DNA from: Actinomycetota bacterium
GTDB taxonomy: Bacteria > Actinomycetota > Humimicrobiia > Humimicrobiales > Humimicrobiaceae
DNA length: 24,000 nucleotides
Assembly: GCA_013202875.1 (NCBI GenBank)
Contig: JABMRD010000172.1
Location: forward strand, 3,417 to 27,416
Reading direction: 5' to 3'
Of the stretch, positions 61-20,213 are shown piece by piece. The stretch's first letter is position 1, and each line of letters opens with the position of its first letter. The position numbers and the translations under genes were made by a program. The notes under the pieces are model-generated. The model worked only from the letters and a program-made list of their open reading frames with translations. It searched no databases and was not told where the DNA came from.

Positions 61-975
61 ATAGCCAGATTAATCAGTGGGACCAGAATCTCACAGGACA
101 TTAAAAATGAGATAACTGAAGAAGTAAAAGAGATGAAAAGAATAAAAGGAATTGTGCCGGGTCTTGCAACAGTACTTGTTGGGGATAATCCTGCTTCAAA
201 GATATATGTTGGAAGCAAACAGAAAGGATGCGAAGCGGTTGGTTTTAAATCTGAATCTATAAAAATGGATGAGACCGTGTCTACCGAAGATGTATTAAAA
301 GTATTAGATAGATTAAATAACAGGGAAGATATTAATGGTATTCTGGTTCAACTTCCATTGCCGGAACAAATAGATAAGGCAAAGGTTCTGGAAGCAATAT
401 ATCCTGAAAAAGATGTGGATGGATTTCATCCTGTAAATATAGGCAAGCTGGTAGCCCAGCAGGAGTGCCTGGTGCCGGCAACACCCTCTGGTATTATAGA
501 AATGTTAAAGAGGGAGAGTATAGATATAAAAGGCAAGAATGCTACTGTAGTGGGCCATAGTGAAATAGTCGGAAAACCTGTCAGCCTGCTCCTTTTAAAT
601 GAATGGGCCACGGTTACTATATGTCATATTGAGACAAGAGATCTGAAGATGCATACAAGCTATGCGGATATCCTGATTGTAGCTACCGGTGTACCATATC
701 TAATCAAGGGTGATATGGTTAAAGATGGTGCCGTGGTTATAGATGTAGGAATCAACAGGATTACAAAAGATAAGGCGAACCAGGAACTGCTGGAATGGAG
801 AAAAGAAGACTTTGAAAAAAAAGGCGCTACATTAATCGGGGATGTAGATTTCTTAAGAGTAGAACCTAAGGCCAGCTATATATCGCCTGTACCGGGCGGA
901 GTAGGACCTATGACCATTGCCATGCTTCTCAGTAATACATTAAAGGCAGCAAAGAATATTGTTGGTATGAAGTAG
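61..975 (+). CDS. folD: Bifunctional 5,10-methylene-THF dehydrogenase / methenyl-THF cyclohydrolase (FolD)
   Basis: The ORF from ATG 133 carries FolD hallmarks ([66 protein letters not shown]). In-frame codons 61-132 ([24 protein letters not shown]) still align with the FolD N-terminus (E. coli MAAKIIDGKTIAQQVRSEV) and are bounded by TAA at 58-60. That stretch has no ATG/GTG/TTG, so the start is either ATA 61 (SD GGGGGTGA 48-55) or, conservatively, ATG 133. Confidence 0.9.
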   Translation: [304 protein letters not shown]

Positions 976-13149: not shown

Positions 13150-14607
13150 TTGGAAATTCATTATCTTACTGCTCACCAACTTAAAGACAGGCTGGAAAAA
13201 AGACAGATATCCTGCACTGAAATTGTTGAAGGTGTATATTTGAGAATTGAAGAGGTTGGGGACAGGCTAAATTCATATATCAGACTGGAGAAGGAAAGTG
13301 CCTTATCCAGGGCAGGGGAAGTAGATAAGCTTATAAGCGCCGGCAGTGATATAGAAGATTTTATGGGCATACCAATTGCCATAAAAGACAATATATGTAC
13401 CAAAAATATAACTACAACCTGTGCATCCAGAATTTTAGAAAACTATATCCCTATATATAATGCTACGGTAATTGACAGACTGGAAAGCCGGAATTATATA
13501 CTGGCTGGAAAGGCAAATATGGATGAGTTTGCAATGGGCTCGTCCAATGAAAACTCATATTTTGGGACTGTTAAAAACCCATGGGATACTGACAGGGTGC
13601 CGGGCGGGTCCAGCGGTGGACCTGCAGTCTGTGTTGCAGCAGGTGAGGCTGTATGCTCGCTGGGATCTGATACCGGCGGCTCAATAAGGCAGCCTGCATC
13701 TCTTTGCGGTGTTGTCGGATTTAAGCCCACATACGGAATGGTGTCCAGGTATGGACTGGTAGCGTTTGCATCTTCACTTGACCAGATAGGGCCGCTTACA
13801 AGAGATGTTGAAGATTGCGCAGCGATGCTTAATATAATCTGCGGCTATGACAGAAAAGATTCCACCTCTATAAATGTGGAGGTTCCGGATTATAAAAGCT
13901 TTCTTAAGGCAGACATAAAAGATATGAGGATCGGGGTTCCGAAGGAACTGATGGTTGAAGGTATCGACCGGGAAGTAAAAGAAGCAGTTTACAGGATCAT
14001 CAAACTGGTTGAAGATATGGGTGGTATAGTTGAAGAGATCTCATTGCCAAGCCTGGAATATGCGCTGAGCGTGTATTACATTATTGCCCCTTCTGAAGCC
14101 AGTTCAAACCTTTCAAGATTTGATGGAGTAAGATATGGATACAGGAACGTGGAAGCGGGGGCCTTAAGGGAAATGTACCGCAGAAGCAGGGCAGAGGGAT
14201 TTGGAGATGAGGTTAAAAGAAGAATAATGATAGGAACCTACTGTCTGTCAGCAGGATATTATGATGCGTATTATGAGAAGGCACAGAGAGTAAGAACGCT
14301 CGTTATAAATGATTTTAAAAAAGCTTTTGAAAAATTTGATGTTCTGATCTCTCCGACATCGCCTACTACGGCTTTTAAGATTGGAGAGAAGATGGAAGAT
14401 CCATTGACCATGTATCTTTCGGATATCTGCACTATACCGGTAAATCTGGCGGGACTGCCGGCAATTTCAATTCCTGCAGGGCTGTCAGGCAGTAAATTGC
14501 CCATTGGATTGCAGATTATTGGAAACGTATTGAGAGAGGATAATGTGCTTAAGGTAGCTTACAGCCTGGAGAAGGCAATAGGCTTTACCGGCAGGCCTGG
14601 GTTATAA
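13150..14607 (+). CDS. gatA: Asp/Glu-tRNA(Asn/Gln) amidotransferase subunit A
   Basis: 485-aa ORF with a TTG start 7 nt after AAGGAG. The amidase signature is present (GGSSGGPAV, GSDTGGSIRQPA, KPTYG). Confidence 0.93.
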   Translation: MEIHYLTAHQLKDRLEKRQISCTEIVEGVYLRIEEVGDRLNSYIRLEKESALSRAGEVDKLISAGSDIEDFMGIPIAIKDNICTKNITTTCASRILENYIPIYNATVIDRLESRNYILAGKANMDEFAMGSSNENSYFGTVKNPWDTDRVPGGSSGGPAVCVAAGEAVCSLGSDTGGSIRQPASLCGVVGFKPTYGMVSRYGLVAFASSLDQIGPLTRDVEDCAAMLNIICGYDRKDSTSINVEVPDYKSFLKADIKDMRIGVPKELMVEGIDREVKEAVYRIIKLVEDMGGIVEEISLPSLEYALSVYYIIAPSEASSNLSRFDGVRYGYRNVEAGALREMYRRSRAEGFGDEVKRRIMIGTYCLSAGYYDAYYEKAQRVRTLVINDFKKAFEKFDVLISPTSPTTAFKIGEKMEDPLTMYLSDICTIPVNLAGLPAISIPAGLSGSKLPIGLQIIGNVLREDNVLKVAYSLEKAIGFTGRPGL

Positions 14608-16193
14608 CAGATTACAGATGTTTTTATCAGCTTATGCAAGAATGGTTTTTTTAAATTAATAACTAGTATATCTGGACTGGAGAAGTCAACTACCTCTCTC
14701 TAAAGGAAGAGGCTTGAATAAAGTCTCTGGTTGACTAGGAGGCATAGTTATTATGCAGAAGTTAAAAGAAAGAAATACATACACACCTACAGTTATTCCG
14801 CAAGATTGTAGCAACTGTGGTTTGTCATTAAACAGTCCTTTTGAGGTACGGGACAGTGTGGCAAGCTTAAAAACTTCTTTTAACAGCTCCGATGCGGCTC
14901 TCACTGCCAGAGAACAGGCAGGACAGAACTTGCGAGTATCTGTCGTAAATGTTCTCAATAAAAGAGGAGTTCCCCTGATGCCTTGCAAACCTCAAAAGGC
15001 TAGAAGACTTCTTAAAGAAGGAAAAGCTAAGGTATTAAAGAGAACCCCGTTTACTATTCAATTGTTATATACAACTGGAGAATCAAAACAAAATCTTACA
15101 TTAGGGGTAGATGCTGGATACTCTAATGTAGGTTTGTCTGTAGTTTCAGCAGATAAAGAATTGTATTCAGCAGAATTAAAATTAAGAACTGATATGGTTA
15201 AGCTCAATTCAGAGAGGGCTACGTACAGAAGAACCAGAAGAAGTAGAAAGACGTGGTATAGAAAAGCAAGATTTCTTAATAGAAAGAAACCACAGGGATG
15301 GTTAGCTCCCTCGATCCAAAATAAGCTGGATACTCATTTGAAGATTATCGAAAGAATAAGGGGTATTCTTCCTATTTCTAATGTAGTTATAGAAGTAGCT
15401 GCGTTTGATACACAAAAGATCCAGAATCCAGAAATTACGGGAGTTGAATATCAGCAAGGTGAACTGGTGGGATATAAAATCAGAGAATACTTATTAGAGA
15501 AATGGAAAAGGAAATGTGCTTACTGTGGGGAAAAAGACATTCCTCTCGAAATTGAACATATTATACCAAAATCAAGAGGTGGCTCCAGCAGGATATCCAA
15601 TCTAACGATTTCCTGCAACAAATGTAATTTAAAGAAGGGCAACAAAACAGCAGAAGAATTTGGACATCAAGAAATACAGAAACAGGCTAAAGAATCCTTA
15701 AGAGCGACTGTATTTATGAATAACGTTAGATGGAAATTAGTAAATCTACTGGGTTGTAAATGGACTTATGGTTATATAACAAAACACAATAGGATTAAAT
15801 TAGGATTAAAAAAATCACATTCTAACGATGCTTTTATTATAGCAGGGGGTTCAACACAAAAAAGAAACGATCAAATATTTTGGATTAAACAGGTTAGAAA
15901 ATGTAATCGGAAACTTTTTAAAGGGAAAAGAAGTCATCTTAAAAATACTGCACCGAGGTTCGTTAAAGAGTTTCAACGTTTTGACAAAGTGCTTTGGAAA
16001 AATATTGAATGCTTTATCTTTGGAAGAAGAAGTACAGGATACTTTGATATTAGAATGTTAAATGGCCATAAACTTTCTTCGAGTGCAAAAGCTAAAGATT
16101 TAAAATTATTAGAGACCTTTAAAACATTATTAACAGAAAAAATGCGTTTCCTCCCCTACCTAAAGGATGGGGTCTCCGCACAAAGGATGGAAG
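14608..16193 (+). mobile_element. Non-autonomous IS200/IS605-type IscB (OMEGA) element filling the gatA-gatB spacer; ends approximate
   Basis: A ~1.6-kb spacer lies between genes that are normally adjacent in an operon. It contains a candidate omega RNA plus iscB and no tnpA. Exact ends cannot be set without an empty-site comparison. Confidence 0.6.
14640..14935 (+). ncRNA. Candidate IscB omega RNA (HEARO-type guide RNA scaffold); boundaries approximate
   Basis: This is the expected position, immediately 5' of and overlapping the iscB start. Nested stems are present: 14684-14690/14730-14736 and 14693-14697/14708-14712, plus 14787-14792/14806-14811. Possible long-range pairs are 14674-14679/14833-14838 and 14725-14730/14907-14912. 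It is more GC-rich than the other spacers. No covariance search was possible. Confidence 0.5.
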
Positions 16194-16210
16194 ATGAAAA
16201 ACGAATATGA
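14753..16210 (+). CDS. iscB: IscB RNA-guided endonuclease (PLMP, RuvC-I, RRXRR bridge helix, RuvC-II, HNH, RuvC-III, C-terminal TID-like tail)
   Basis: Motifs in order: VPLMPCKPQKARRLLKEGKAKV; LGVDAGYSNVGLSVV; YRRTRRSRKTWYRKARFLNRKKPQGWLAPSI; VVIEVAAFDTQKIQNPEITGVEYQQGEL; CAYCGEKDIPLEIEHIIPKSRGGSSRISNLTISCNKCNLKKGN; KSHSNDAFIIAG; FGRRSTGYFDIRMLNG. Coordinates are the maximal ORF. IscB homology starts near 14936, so TTG 14930 is an alternative start. Confidence 0.9.
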   Translation: MQKLKERNTYTPTVIPQDCSNCGLSLNSPFEVRDSVASLKTSFNSSDAALTAREQAGQNLRVSVVNVLNKRGVPLMPCKPQKARRLLKEGKAKVLKRTPFTIQLLYTTGESKQNLTLGVDAGYSNVGLSVVSADKELYSAELKLRTDMVKLNSERATYRRTRRSRKTWYRKARFLNRKKPQGWLAPSIQNKLDTHLKIIERIRGILPISNVVIEVAAFDTQKIQNPEITGVEYQQGELVGYKIREYLLEKWKRKCAYCGEKDIPLEIEHIIPKSRGGSSRISNLTISCNKCNLKKGNKTAEEFGHQEIQKQAKESLRATVFMNNVRWKLVNLLGCKWTYGYITKHNRIKLGLKKSHSNDAFIIAGGSTQKRNDQIFWIKQVRKCNRKLFKGKRSHLKNTAPRFVKEFQRFDKVLWKNIECFIFGRRSTGYFDIRMLNGHKLSSSAKAKDLKLLETFKTLLTEKMRFLPYLKDGVSAQRMEDEKRI

Positions 16211-17645
16211 ACCGGTTATAGGCTTAGAGACCCATGTTGAACTTTATACCAATACCAAGATGTTTTGCGGGTGCAGGCTTTCATTTGGTGAGGAGAAAAA
16301 TATATATACCTGTCCTGTATGTCTGGGACATCCAGGGTCACTTCCAGTTATAAATAAAAAGGCAATTGAATATGCCGTAAAGATTGCCCTGGCACTAAAT
16401 TGTAAGATTAAAAAATATACTATATTCCACAGAAAAAATTATTTTTATCCAGATATGCCCAAAAATTACCAGATTTCACAGTATGACATGCCTCTGGGAG
16501 TCGGAGGCTACCTTGATATTGATATGGGCAGCTATATAAGGAGAGTGGGAATAACCAGGGTGCATATGGAGGAAGATACGGGGAAACTCCTGCATAAGGG
16601 AACAACCGGAAGAATAAGTGAATCCGAAGCCAGTATAGTTGATTTTAACCGTGCCGGGACTCCTCTTATAGAAATTGTTACGGAGCCGGATATAAGATCA
16701 CCAGGGGAAGCAAAGGGATATATGATAACGCTAAGGAATTTAATTCTGTTTCTGAATGTCAGCGATTGCAGTATGGAAGAAGGGAGCTTGAGGTGTGATG
16801 CCAATGTTTCTGTAAGAAAAACATGCGAAGATAAAATTGGCACAAAGAACGAGATTAAAAATTTAAACTCCTTTAAATTCCTGCAAAAAGGGCTGGAATA
16901 TGAAGTTAAAAGACAGATTAAAGTTCTGGAGACAGGCGGTGAAGTAATTCAGCAGACAAGGCATTATGACAGCAAAACAGGAACCACCAAAGTCCTGCGT
17001 TCTAAAGAAGAAGCCCATGACTACAGATATTTTCCGGAGCCAGATCTGGTTCCTATTTATATAGAGGATAAGATGATAGAGGATATTAGAAAAACAATTC
17101 CCGAGCTGCCTTCTGTAAAAGCTAAAAGATTTGAGAAGCAGCACGGCCTACCCAAATATGACAGCAGCTTTCTGGCTAATAATAAAGATCTGTCAGATTA
17201 TTTTGAGCAGTGCTGCAGGCATTATAATAATGCTAAAAATATTGCCAACTGGATAATGGGTGACTTCAGCGCACTTCTAAATAAAGAAAAAATAATCATT
17301 AAAGATAGCAGGGTAACTCCTGAGAACCTATGCAAGATGCTGGAAATAATCGATAAGGGCAAAATCAATTCTAAAATAGCCAAGGCAGTATTTGAAGAGA
17401 TGTTCAGCACCGGGGGGGACCCACAGAAGATTATTGAGGATAGGGGGCTGGAGCAGATAAGCGATGAAGGTTTGCTTGAAGCCATTATTGAAGAGGTCGT
17501 TAAAGATAATCCCGGCGCGGTGGAACAGTTCAGGGAGGGAAAGGATAAAGCTATAGGCTTTTTAATCGGAAGAGTAATGGCTAAAACCAAAGGCAAGGCA
17601 AATCCCAGAATAGTAAATGATATTATAACTAAAAAATTAAGTTGA
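16194..17645 (+). CDS. gatB: Asp/Glu-tRNA(Asn/Gln) amidotransferase subunit B
   Basis: MKNEYEPVIGLETHVEL is the canonical GatB N-terminus, followed by CPVCLGHPGSLPV and a C-terminal YqeY-like tail. ATG 16194 sits behind AAAGGA. The 9 extra codons from ATG 16167 in the ORF track are not homologous. Confidence 0.93.
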   Translation: MKNEYEPVIGLETHVELYTNTKMFCGCRLSFGEEKNIYTCPVCLGHPGSLPVINKKAIEYAVKIALALNCKIKKYTIFHRKNYFYPDMPKNYQISQYDMPLGVGGYLDIDMGSYIRRVGITRVHMEEDTGKLLHKGTTGRISESEASIVDFNRAGTPLIEIVTEPDIRSPGEAKGYMITLRNLILFLNVSDCSMEEGSLRCDANVSVRKTCEDKIGTKNEIKNLNSFKFLQKGLEYEVKRQIKVLETGGEVIQQTRHYDSKTGTTKVLRSKEEAHDYRYFPEPDLVPIYIEDKMIEDIRKTIPELPSVKAKRFEKQHGLPKYDSSFLANNKDLSDYFEQCCRHYNNAKNIANWIMGDFSALLNKEKIIIKDSRVTPENLCKMLEIIDKGKINSKIAKAVFEEMFSTGGDPQKIIEDRGLEQISDEGLLEAIIEEVVKDNPGAVEQFREGKDKAIGFLIGRVMAKTKGKANPRIVNDIITKKLS

Positions 17646-18832: not shown

Positions 18833-18856
18833 AAAATTTTATGAATGTCTGCCCGG

Positions 18857-19090
18857 TCATAAACTATAAGAGTTTGAGCCTGATTCGTTACAAATCGGGC
18901 AATGAAGCTCGAAGTATATATGCTTTTTTACAAGAGGAGCTAAATGTCCAACTACAGTAATGCCACAATTGATATCAACCATTCTTCTACACTCTGGACA
19001 TTTTGTATTTGGTATCTTGAAATATACCCCGGGATCTTTTCCAACATGACCATATGAGAGGTTGGAATAACTTTGCGTCATACTCAGCAT
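18857..19090 (-). CDS. Small zinc-ribbon protein (CPEC...CPIC), or the C-terminal part of a frameshifted larger gene
   Basis: 77-aa ORF with two CxxC pairs. The same frame stays open upstream to 19225 without a canonical start and overlaps the end of the HEAT ORF. Confidence 0.4.
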   Translation of the reverse strand: MLSMTQSYSNLSYGHVGKDPGVYFKIPNTKCPECRRMVDINCGITVVGHLAPLVKKHIYFELHCPICNESGSNSYSL

Positions 19091-19203
19091 TTTCTCGTAG
19101 GAAACCTCGCATCCACTTATACCAATATCTATAAGTGCCGAATATAGTTCCGGGTATTGCCTGGATACATACCGTATTACTTCCTCAGACTGTCGTGTGG
19201 GTA

Positions 19204-19461
19204 TTAGATCAACCCCAGATGGGGGCTATCGGAAAAATTGAAGCCAATTTTCTCCAGTGCGGTTGCTGCAGCATTGTTATGTGTATCATCCAACACACGC
19301 AAAAGAGGTCCTACTGCTCTCCCGTCTCTTATATTCCCGAGAGCTACTGCTGTTTCCCGTCGGACATCTTTATCCTCATACTTTAAAGTTCTTATCAATC
19401 CTTCAACATCTTTATTTACTCGTATCTTTTCCACATTTGGCTTTTTACCAAATATATCCAT
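19204..19461 (-). CDS. HEAT-repeat (PBS-lyase HEAT-like) protein, short or truncated
   Basis: 85-aa ORF with the HEAT-like pattern VEGLIRTLKYEDKDVRRETAVALGNIRDGRAVGPLLRVLDD. Confidence 0.55.
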   Translation of the reverse strand: MDIFGKKPNVEKIRVNKDVEGLIRTLKYEDKDVRRETAVALGNIRDGRAVGPLLRVLDDTHNNAAATALEKIGFNFSDSPHLGLI

Positions 19462-19558
19462 TTTAACACCTCCAACTTATGCGACTAATTGCGAATAACT
19501 CGTTTTTATACGAATTATTTTCATAAAAATACCAAGACCTTACTCTTATACGAAATAC

Positions 19559-19596
19559 GTATAGAATAATATCAATAGTATAGAATGATATCAATA
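19559..19596. repeat. Tandem 19-bp direct repeat x2 (GTATAGAATAATATCAATA / GTATAGAATGATATCAATA)
   Basis: Copies at 19559-19577 and 19578-19596 differ at one position. TTATACGAA also occurs twice, at 19506-19514 and 19546-19554. The repeat lies in a 400-bp divergent intergenic region. Confidence 0.6.
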
Positions 19597-19865
19597 CTTG
19601 GGACTCCTATATTTTAACAAAATCAGTAAATTAATCAATTATCCAAATTGGAAAGGAAGCATCTAAAAATATCAAATATAATGAATACGCGCTGATATTT
19701 TTATGGTATAATAATAACAATAGTAAGGTTATTGTTAGATAATGTGTTAATAAGATAAGTCTGAATTTTTTTTGGCTAACCTTGAAAATTAAAATCAGCA
19801 TTTTTATGCATTATTTATACTATTTTTGTTTAAAGATGATTTTTAATAAGTGAAAGGAAAACAAG

Positions 19866-20213
19866 GTGAATAAAAGACTATATGTAGGCAATCTGGAGTA
19901 CTCTACTACAGATAAAGAACTGGAGGAACTATTCTCCAGTGAAGGTAGTGTAACTTATGCAAAAGTAATTAGAAGTCTGGATGGTCGATCGAAAGGCTTC
20001 GGGTTTGTGGAAATGGGAACTGAGGAAGAAGCAACAAAAGCTATAGAAAAGTTTAACCAGGGTGATTTTAAAGACAGGAAACTTTTAGTAAATGAAGCAA
20101 GACCTCAGGAAAATAGAAGTTTTAGTGGAAATACAAGAAGCGGTAATTACCGGAATGCACCCAAAGATGATCTTAATTATAAGTTAAGAAAATTAAGAAA
20201 AAGATTTAGATAG
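19866..20213 (+). CDS. RRM-domain RNA-binding protein
   Basis: 115-aa ORF with a GTG start. It has RNP-2 (LYVGNL) and RNP-1 (KGFGFVEM) and a basic C-terminal tail. Confidence 0.85.
   Translation: MNKRLYVGNLEYSTTDKELEELFSSEGSVTYAKVIRSLDGRSKGFGFVEMGTEEEATKAIEKFNQGDFKDRKLLVNEARPQENRSFSGNTRSGNYRNAPKDDLNYKLRKLRKRFR

Follow-up and report, generated by a model that had tools for sequence, protein, structure and literature searches.

The 24,000-nt stretch of contig JABMRD010000172.1 (assembly GCA_013202875.1) that was analyzed here, called the window in what follows, comes from an actinomycetotal bacterium similar to Candidatus Hydromicrobium and very probably carries, at positions 14669-14944, the omega RNA (HEARO) of an IscB nuclease, located at the end of a 1,509-bp element of the IS200/IS605 family that lies between the gatA and gatB genes. 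This omega RNA is canonical, and it adds one case to a family that is already known in structure and mechanism. Coordinates given below are those of the window, and all features lie on its plus strand unless stated otherwise.

Identification of the omega RNA

A scan of the entire 24-kb window against Rfam 15 (cmscan) returned a match to HEARO (RF02033) at 14685-14904, which covers the model from end to end (positions 1-211 of 211) with 121.2 bits, compared with a gathering score of 83, and an E-value of 6e-25. No other family reaches its gathering score in the window, and no tRNA genes were found there. The omega scaffold, which ends at 14944, adjoins on the same strand an open reading frame (ORF) with RRXRR and HNH domains, i.e. 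the iscB gene, with homology to IscB proteins from about 14945 onward. An earlier reading of the window, made from the letters alone, had proposed an omega (HEARO-type) RNA in the interval directly upstream of iscB and had pointed to the Rfam HEARO model, and to conservation and covariation among related upstream regions, as ways of checking it; the full-length match above the gathering score and the comparative data described below both bear this proposal out. It had, however, placed the RNA at 14608-14935, where a structured RNA does lie, but where 14608-14668 is host spacer and the scaffold runs 9 nt further, to 14944. Its remark that the interval is less AT-rich than the other spacers of the window (GC content 0.17-0.35) is likewise true of the scaffold (0.43 for 14685-14944) but not of 14608-14668 (0.25). 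The gatA stop codon is at 14607, as had been read, and the homology to IscB indeed begins only well after it, although near 14945, at residue 65 of the long ORF, where RRXRR starts, and not at 14936.

The conservation of the RNA was followed with an IscB protein query, which gave 59 loci in representative genomes and 80 in metagenomes, 40 of them being scanned with Rfam. In all 34 scanned loci with enough upstream DNA, HEARO was found at full length directly 5' of iscB, scoring 96-164 bits, and iscB genes of different phyla, in genomic surroundings that are unrelated, are accompanied by this same RNA. One related locus (L073) holds a second HEARO copy at its positions 350-558 (minus strand), 3.2 kb away and on the opposite strand. 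Closer to the window, the same insertion is present in the sister strain L060 (98.7% identical DNA), in L148-L150 (identical protein) and in L151, a metagenome-assembled genome of Candidatus Hydromicrobium sp. (GCA_030692625.1) that is 97.7% identical over 4.9 kb. Between the window and L060 there are 0 differences in the 276 nt of the omega RNA (14669-14944), compared with 8 in the 61 nt of the adjoining spacer (14608-14668; Fisher p = 8e-7). The omega region of L151 has five differences, all of which are compatible with the structure, as two swap one standard pair for another and three are in unpaired positions.

The HEARO motif is said to have been described in Weinberg et al. 2009 (Nature). 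The sequence-only reading had credited it to Weinberg et al. 2010; the one Weinberg et al. 2010 paper examined (Genome Biol 11:R31) makes no mention of HEARO.

Architecture of the scaffold

Projection of the model consensus onto the part of the scaffold that Rfam covers (14685-14904) shows 63 of 66 pairs to be canonical. The scaffold opens with helix P1 (14685-14692 with 14728-14735), which encloses two hairpins, one of which, inside the 5' end of the scaffold (14694-14700 with 14705-14712, loop TAAAGGA), is the subterminal hairpin of the right end (RE) in the IS200/IS605 convention. P1 is followed by a pseudoknot (14738-14742 with 14886-14890, four of its five pairs being canonical) and a long central stem (14761-14771 with 14874-14884), and there are further hairpins at 14783-14818 (including 14787-14794 with 14804-14811) and 14820-14866. 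Beyond the end of RF02033, RNAfold together with covariation adds two terminal hairpins, TH1 (14904-14908 with 14917-14921) and TH2 (14922-14930 with 14935-14944).

Several of these helices had been picked out by eye in the sequence-only reading. AGTCAAC/GTTGACT is helix P1, with only the outermost pair, A14684:T14736, falling outside the model; CCTCT/AGAGG is the inner hairpin at 14694-14712 in a slightly shifted register; and CTACAG/TTGTAG is the model helix 14787-14794 with 14804-14811. The two long-range pairings that had been offered as possible have to be given up. In GGACTG (14674-14679) with CAGTCC (14833-14838), the 5' side is host flank that is present in the empty sites and unrelated in other loci, and the 3' side lies within a covarying hairpin; in CTCTGG (14725-14730) with CCAGAG (14907-14912), positions 14728-14730 belong to P1 and 14907-14912 to TH1 and its loop.

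The pairing was assessed in the RNAs of 35 relatives, which were aligned with MAFFT on sequence only, with no fitting to structure, before the Rfam pairs were counted. In this alignment 82.9% of the cells are standard-paired, compared with 37-43% when the 3' partners are slid by one to three columns, and 47 of the 66 pairs have changed on both sides (372 cells), values that were reached by none of 500 shuffles. The pseudoknot helix is only 50% paired in the sequence-only alignment, the two clades aligning poorly there. TH1 and TH2 were predicted independently by RNAfold in most relatives, with stems of differing sequence, and in an alignment of 15 sequences 88.7% of their cells are paired, compared with 35-51% in slid versions, with 12 of 14 pairs changed on both sides. 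Because TH1 and TH2 covary beyond the end of RF02033, the scaffold is taken to 14944 and is thus about 260 nt long (14685-14944). Consistent with that, Meers et al. note that RF02033 is without downstream structural elements, and the OgeuIscB omega RNA carries two terminal hairpins (PMC9640706).

Boundaries of the element, guide and adjacent motif

The boundaries of the element were obtained by aligning the filled sites of the window and of L060 with the empty sites of L140-L146, whose contigs encode a GatB 93-95% identical to that of the window and show the same gene order (ligA, a Rce1-like gene, gatC, gatA, gatB, pfk), with only 77-78 nt between gatA and gatB. This alignment, ...CTGGACTGGAGAA|element|ATGAAAAAC, delimits an element of 1,509 bp at 14685-16193 that consists of the omega scaffold and iscB and that left no target duplication upon insertion. 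The empty site in L144-L146 reads ...TTATATCTGGACTGGAGAA|ATGAAAAACGAA..., i.e. ...GGAGAA|ATGAAA, while the left junction in the window reads ...GTATATCTGGACTGGAGAA|GTCAACTACC..., i.e. ...GGAGAA|GTCAAC..., and the right junction ...AAAGGATGGAAG|ATGAAAAACGAA, i.e. ...GGAAG|ATGAAA. The segment 14608-14668 upstream of the RNA is native gatA-gatB spacer, being of the same sequence in the insertion-free relatives L140-L146, and it holds 8 of the 24 differences to L060.

The first base of the element, following the boundary 14684|14685, coincides with position 1 of the HEARO model, and in the relatives conservation starts exactly at GTCAA, the 30 nt upstream being unrelated in every locus. With the scaffold beginning at the first base of the element, some 16 nt of the host DNA upstream become the guide. 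The guide segment is TATCTGGACTGGAGAA (14669-14684), a 16-mer of the host flank that in the empty sites L144-L146 is followed by ATGAAA, and not a segment somewhere in about 14610-14680, as the earlier reading had supposed; it is free of differences in both L060 and L151. Its length of 16-17 nt is assumed from OgeuIscB, which has a guide of about 17 nt with the 14 nt proximal to the transposon-adjacent motif (TAM) being essential (PMC9640706). A second match to the guide, at 19932-19947 on the minus strand with three mismatches, lies within chance expectation and was discarded.

At the far end of the element, a subterminal hairpin, CCTCCCCTACCTAAAGGATGGGGTCTCC (16150-16177), which marks the left end (LE) in the IS200/IS605 convention, lies within the 3' end of iscB; relatives carry the motif ...CCCC-N-CTNAAG-N-GGGGTCTCC at this position. 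The hairpin is followed by the terminal 16 nt of the element, GCACAAAGGATGGAAG (16178-16193), which are delimited by the comparison with the empty sites and are not conserved in relatives. The two end hairpins of the window element, at 14694-14712 and 16153-16172, have the loop TAAAGGA in common and stems that are unlike (CCTCTCTC versus CCCCTACC). In the related element L075 (3765-3800 and 5215-5260) the omega 5' hairpin and the far-end hairpin are identical, CCCCACGGCTAAAGCCGGGGG, an example of the 5' hairpin of the omega RNA being the transposon-end hairpin.

The element is abutted by the TAM ATGAAA (16194-16199; TTTCAT on the other strand), which contains the start codon of gatB. In all nine related elements with a recognizable hairpin, ATGA is found 10-16 nt after the terminal hairpin, and in seven of the nine it extends to ATGAA. 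For GstIscB, Meers et al. give TTCAT as the wild-type TAM, in the reading 5' of LE, so that ATGAA on the plus strand is the published GstIscB motif, and guide plus motif make up exactly the empty allele of L144-L146. The empty sites of L140-L143 (3488-3500) differ in that they read ...CTGGACTGAAAA|ATG, which departs from the guide in its seed, the TAM-proximal bases, and gives gatB no obvious Shine-Dalgarno sequence; this variant could be an allele immune to cleavage or plain variation.

The IscB protein and the insertion ahead of gatB

From an ATG inside the scaffold the iscB ORF extends over 14753-16210 (485 aa), and the part homologous to IscB starts near TTG 14930 (426 aa). In the long ORF, Pfam RRXRR covers residues 65-236 and HNH residues 255-298, which is the IscB architecture, and the protein matches the solved structures of TbaIscB and OgeuIscB (7XHT/7UTN) with E-values of 1e-40 to 1e-46. 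Numbered from TTG 14930, PLMP is found at residues 15-18 and D61, E155, H210, H297, and D300 are all present, the first three aligning with D61, E193, and H247 of OgeuIscB, so that IscB keeps its PLMP, RuvC, and HNH catalytic motifs. Relative to L060, iscB has 14 differences, 8 synonymous and 6 nonsynonymous, with the catalytic motifs intact.

The element is wedged between the native ribosome-binding site of gatB (GGAGAA) and the gatB ATG, and it sits directly before the start codon because the target motif ATGAA contains the ATG. A 9-nt direct repeat, AAAGGATGG, occurs at 16162-16170, within the end hairpin (loop and 3' arm), and again at 16182-16190, within the last 16 nt of the element, where it places AAGGA, which resembles a Shine-Dalgarno sequence, 6 nt upstream of the gatB ATG. 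The terminal bases of the element thus appear to replace the lost ribosome-binding site of gatB, and the terminal segment may have been selected after insertion, as it is not conserved in related elements. The stop codon of iscB (TGA, 16208-16210) lies in host DNA, and its ORF overlaps gatB by 17 nt, so that translational coupling of gatB to iscB is possible.

Proposed mechanism and relation to known systems

As scaffold and element share their first base, transcription would have to enter from outside, most likely by read-through from gatC-gatA, an operon of the same orientation, and the spacer 14608-14668 would form the 5' leader of any read-through omega precursor. A promoter candidate noted by eye, TTGGTT-N16-TATTAT, was rejected, as it is visible only in the empty-site variants and would leave the guide too short. 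The complex of IscB and its RNA would then recognize the sequence complementary to the guide followed by ATGAA, that is, the junction from which the element is absent or has been excised. Cutting the donor joint or an empty sister allele would force repair from the copy that bears the element, whereby the element would be retained or spread. We infer such cleavage by the ribonucleoprotein, followed by recombinational re-installation, by homology to known systems.

The anatomy of the locus agrees point by point with the published account, according to which the scaffold derives from RE, the guide lies outside the element boundary, transcription comes from outside and the orientation of iscB is biased toward that of the upstream gene; tnpA is nearby for only about 1.5% of iscB genes, and omega RNAs average 242 bp. 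The GstIscB element (ISGst family, Geobacillus stearothermophilus; Meers et al. 2023) is, like the one in the window, a non-autonomous element of the IS200/IS605 type with a scaffold bounded by RE and a guide outside it; it shares the orientation of the upstream host gene, has TTCAT by LE (ATGAA on the plus strand here), and its expected target is the empty or excised junction. Unlike GstIscB, no cognate TnpA or extra copies were identified for the lineage of the window, whose element sits inside an essential operon before the gatB ATG and has the iscB stop codon outside its own boundary.

In structure, the closest comparison is with the omega RNA of OgeuIscB (PDB 7XHT, 7UTN, 8CSZ), which is alike in its 5' guide, its first helix enclosing hairpins, its pseudoknot, its long central stem and its two terminal hairpins, and which is likewise found immediately ahead of iscB and in its orientation, with a scaffold of 206 nt there compared with about 260 nt here. 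The OgeuIscB protein itself is distant from that of the window (two local matches, E 5e-40). The omega RNA of TnpB (reRNA; IS200/IS605 and IS607) has in common with the present RNA that the scaffold is a transposon end, that the guide derives from the flank and that scaffold and nuclease ORF overlap; in TnpB elements, however, it is the 3' end of the ORF that is overlapped, with a 3' guide and transcription from inside the element, whereas here RNA and guide are 5' and only the start of the ORF could be overlapped. The tracrRNA:crRNA of Cas9, the descendant system, also has its guide 5' of the scaffold, a nuclease with RuvC and HNH domains and a motif 3' of the target, but the element in the window has no CRISPR array, its guide is fixed by the insertion site and its nuclease is much smaller.

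Maintenance or decay of the element

Several observations weigh against the identification of the element and its RNA as set out above. The ends and processing of the RNA are predictions. As a single sequence it folds only modestly better than its shuffles (z = -1.95, with 6 of 200 shuffles folding equally well), and the support therefore rests on the covariance model and on covariation, not on thermodynamics. No sigma-70-like promoter was found on the plus strand over 14400-16400, which is expected under read-through and proves nothing. Copies at other sites were found in none of the genome, metagenome, and protein collections, all copies found (those of L060 and L148-L151 besides the window) being at the gatA-gatB locus, and the next relatives are at most 75% identical in protein in the three collections. 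The 1,509-bp element holds the iscB ORF only, and no tnpA was found in it or in the 24-kb window; Y1_Tnp is also absent from the Pfam-annotated gene calls on the 21-kb source-contig locus L148. The two end hairpins no longer match in their stems, and the window element lacks the GGAGG arm found upstream of the right-end hairpin in relatives. At the L151 equivalent of position 15845, a 1-nt deletion in a run of G truncates IscB to 435 aa, which would be early decay unless it is an assembly error. Finally, relatives have the iscB stop codon 1-13 nt ahead of the TAM, whereas iscB of the window no longer has one inside the element. The element is non-autonomous, like about 98.5% of iscB loci, and it may no longer be mobile or active.

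One alternative is that of a fixed, immobile relic, in which a genuine omega RNA and iscB are present by descent, are inherited vertically inside an essential operon, and now serve as supplier of the gatB ribosome-binding site. It would account for the missing tnpA, for the confinement of all copies to one site in closely related genomes with no second site in the three collections, for the diverged end hairpins with their missing arm and for the frameshift in L151, and it draws further on the fact that the insertion parted GGAGAA from the gatB ATG and that the last 16 nt of the element bring AAGGA 6 nt before it. It is nevertheless considered unlikely, although it deserves serious consideration, because the omega RNA is unchanged relative to L060 where the neighboring spacer is not (0/276 versus 8/61 nt), and because the 8 synonymous and 6 nonsynonymous differences in iscB, with its catalytic motifs intact, indicate continuing constraint on RNA and protein alike; moreover, lack of a nearby tnpA is the condition of about 98.5% of iscB genes anyway. 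In the preferred reading of a maintained omega RNA and nuclease, both RNA and protein are under constraint, while the mobility of the element is doubtful.

Candidate start signals within the scaffold

The window contains a candidate ribosome-binding site and start codon inside the omega scaffold itself (14737-14755), in which AGGAGG (14737-14742), of which 14738-14742 form the 5' strand of the pseudoknot, is followed after 10 nt by the ATG at 14753 (MQKL...). Ahead of 14930 the iscB frame has 65 codons without a stop, through 14735-14929, and it is open as well in 14 related elements. In this subclade of 15 distinct elements, with IscB proteins 52-68% identical, 54-80 open codons precede the PLMP start, and the open stretch, which comprises about 190 nt of scaffold, has 0 stop codons in the iscB frame compared with 3-10 in either of the two remaining frames. 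On its 5' side the stretch is bounded by a TGA in the P1 strand GUUGAC that does not vary. Thirteen other members of the subclade (L001, L002, L006, L007, L032, L061-L064, L066, L067, L070, and L083) have a purine-rich motif with an ATG in a similar position. Across the subclade the embedded ATG lies 65-94 nt into the scaffold, after a GGAGG-like motif, and 53-60 codons from the PLMP start, in frame every time.

At the PLMP start, the elements with an open frame have TTG, ACG, TCG, TTA, or ATG, with no strong Shine-Dalgarno sequence, whereas a canonical ATG occupies this position in the three members of the subclade with a closed frame (L003, L068, and L071; Fisher p = 0.006). In the window the corresponding codon is TTG 14930-14932, which falls at the junction between the 5' arm and the loop of TH2 and is a possible start. 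In L003 (3700-4000) an omega-embedded ORF ends with TAA directly before the iscB ATG (TAAATG), which resembles a translationally coupled upstream ORF and not a fusion. OgeuIscB differs in starting at the PLMP domain, whereas here the GGAGG strand of the pseudoknot is Shine-Dalgarno-like and the iscB frame is open through the roughly 190 nt of scaffold. A more distant clade has AAGGAGG-N7-ATG at the PLMP start, with the frame there closed by stop codons; in this clade the 3' strand of TH1 serves as the Shine-Dalgarno sequence, and the loop of TH2 holds the ATG. About 95 of the 120 closest database homologues have been called with an N-terminal extension. Variability in the overlap shows no three-base periodicity, with a mean column entropy of 0.83, 0.96, and 0.82 at codon positions 1, 2, and 3, which implies that the sequence of the peptide is seemingly unconstrained and that only the frame and its openness are kept. 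In line with this, no functional N-terminal peptide of about 60 residues is claimed.

These findings led to a tentative model, held at somewhat less than even confidence, in which IscB of this subclade is translated from the scaffold-embedded ATG at 14753 with a Shine-Dalgarno sequence within the pseudoknot strand, so that folding and guide function on the one hand and translation on the other exclude each other and synthesis of IscB is subject to negative feedback. Each transcript would either fold and be bound as a guide, with its ribosome-binding site hidden, or be translated, and about 190 nt of scaffold would double as coding sequence, for which the sole requirements would be to keep the frame and to contain no stops. 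The hiding of start signals in the omega structure may be general across both clades. The papers searched describe the omega RNA as a 5' untranslated region, and Meers et al. admit hits that are "overlapping" with the ORF and say nothing further about them. The literature searched holds no description of an overlap between the IscB start and the omega RNA or of such autoregulation; Altae-Tran et al. 2021 and the original HEARO paper lay outside this search, so that an earlier description is possible.

The same data bear on another alternative, according to which the interval is nothing more than the leader, or the first part of the coding sequence, of a long IscB of 485 aa that starts at ATG 14753. 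The frame that is open over 14735-14929 in the window and in 14 related elements, and the long form in which about 95 of the 120 closest homologues have been called, are in its favor, yet it is highly improbable, as coding constraint cannot explain the strong covariation of base pairs, the overlap lacks three-base periodicity, the same RNA is conserved in clades in which the frame is closed by stops, and there is no Pfam homology before residue 65. Control of gatB by a host cis-regulatory RNA (riboswitch, T-box, or attenuator), suggested by the structured look and the position between two genes of the gatCAB operon, can practically be dismissed, since the RNA is absent from the orthologous spacer of L140-L147 (77-78 nt only), HEARO is the sole Rfam family above threshold in the window, and the same RNA occurs with iscB in unrelated contexts across phyla.

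Other observations in the window

Apart from the omega RNA and its element, the window has a spacer of about 1 kb (18833-19865, GC content 0.34) upstream of a gene for a small RRM-domain protein (19866-20213), in which no Rfam family is above threshold. It holds short ORFs only, namely a Cys-rich ORF of 77 aa (18857-19090, minus strand) and a weakly HEAT-like gene of 85 aa that has been called on the source contig.

Significance

The main finding is confirmatory with respect to the family. What it adds is an anatomy of the locus that is precise to the base, an insertion that separates the start codon of an essential gene from its ribosome-binding site, and start signals embedded in the scaffold. 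As filled and empty alleles coexist in public metagenomes, the boundaries, the guide and the adjacent motif can be given to the base, and the guide targets exactly the empty allele. If the embedded start is real, the formation of the guide would be coupled to the synthesis of the nuclease, which would bear on the annotation of these IscB proteins and on their expression for genome editing.

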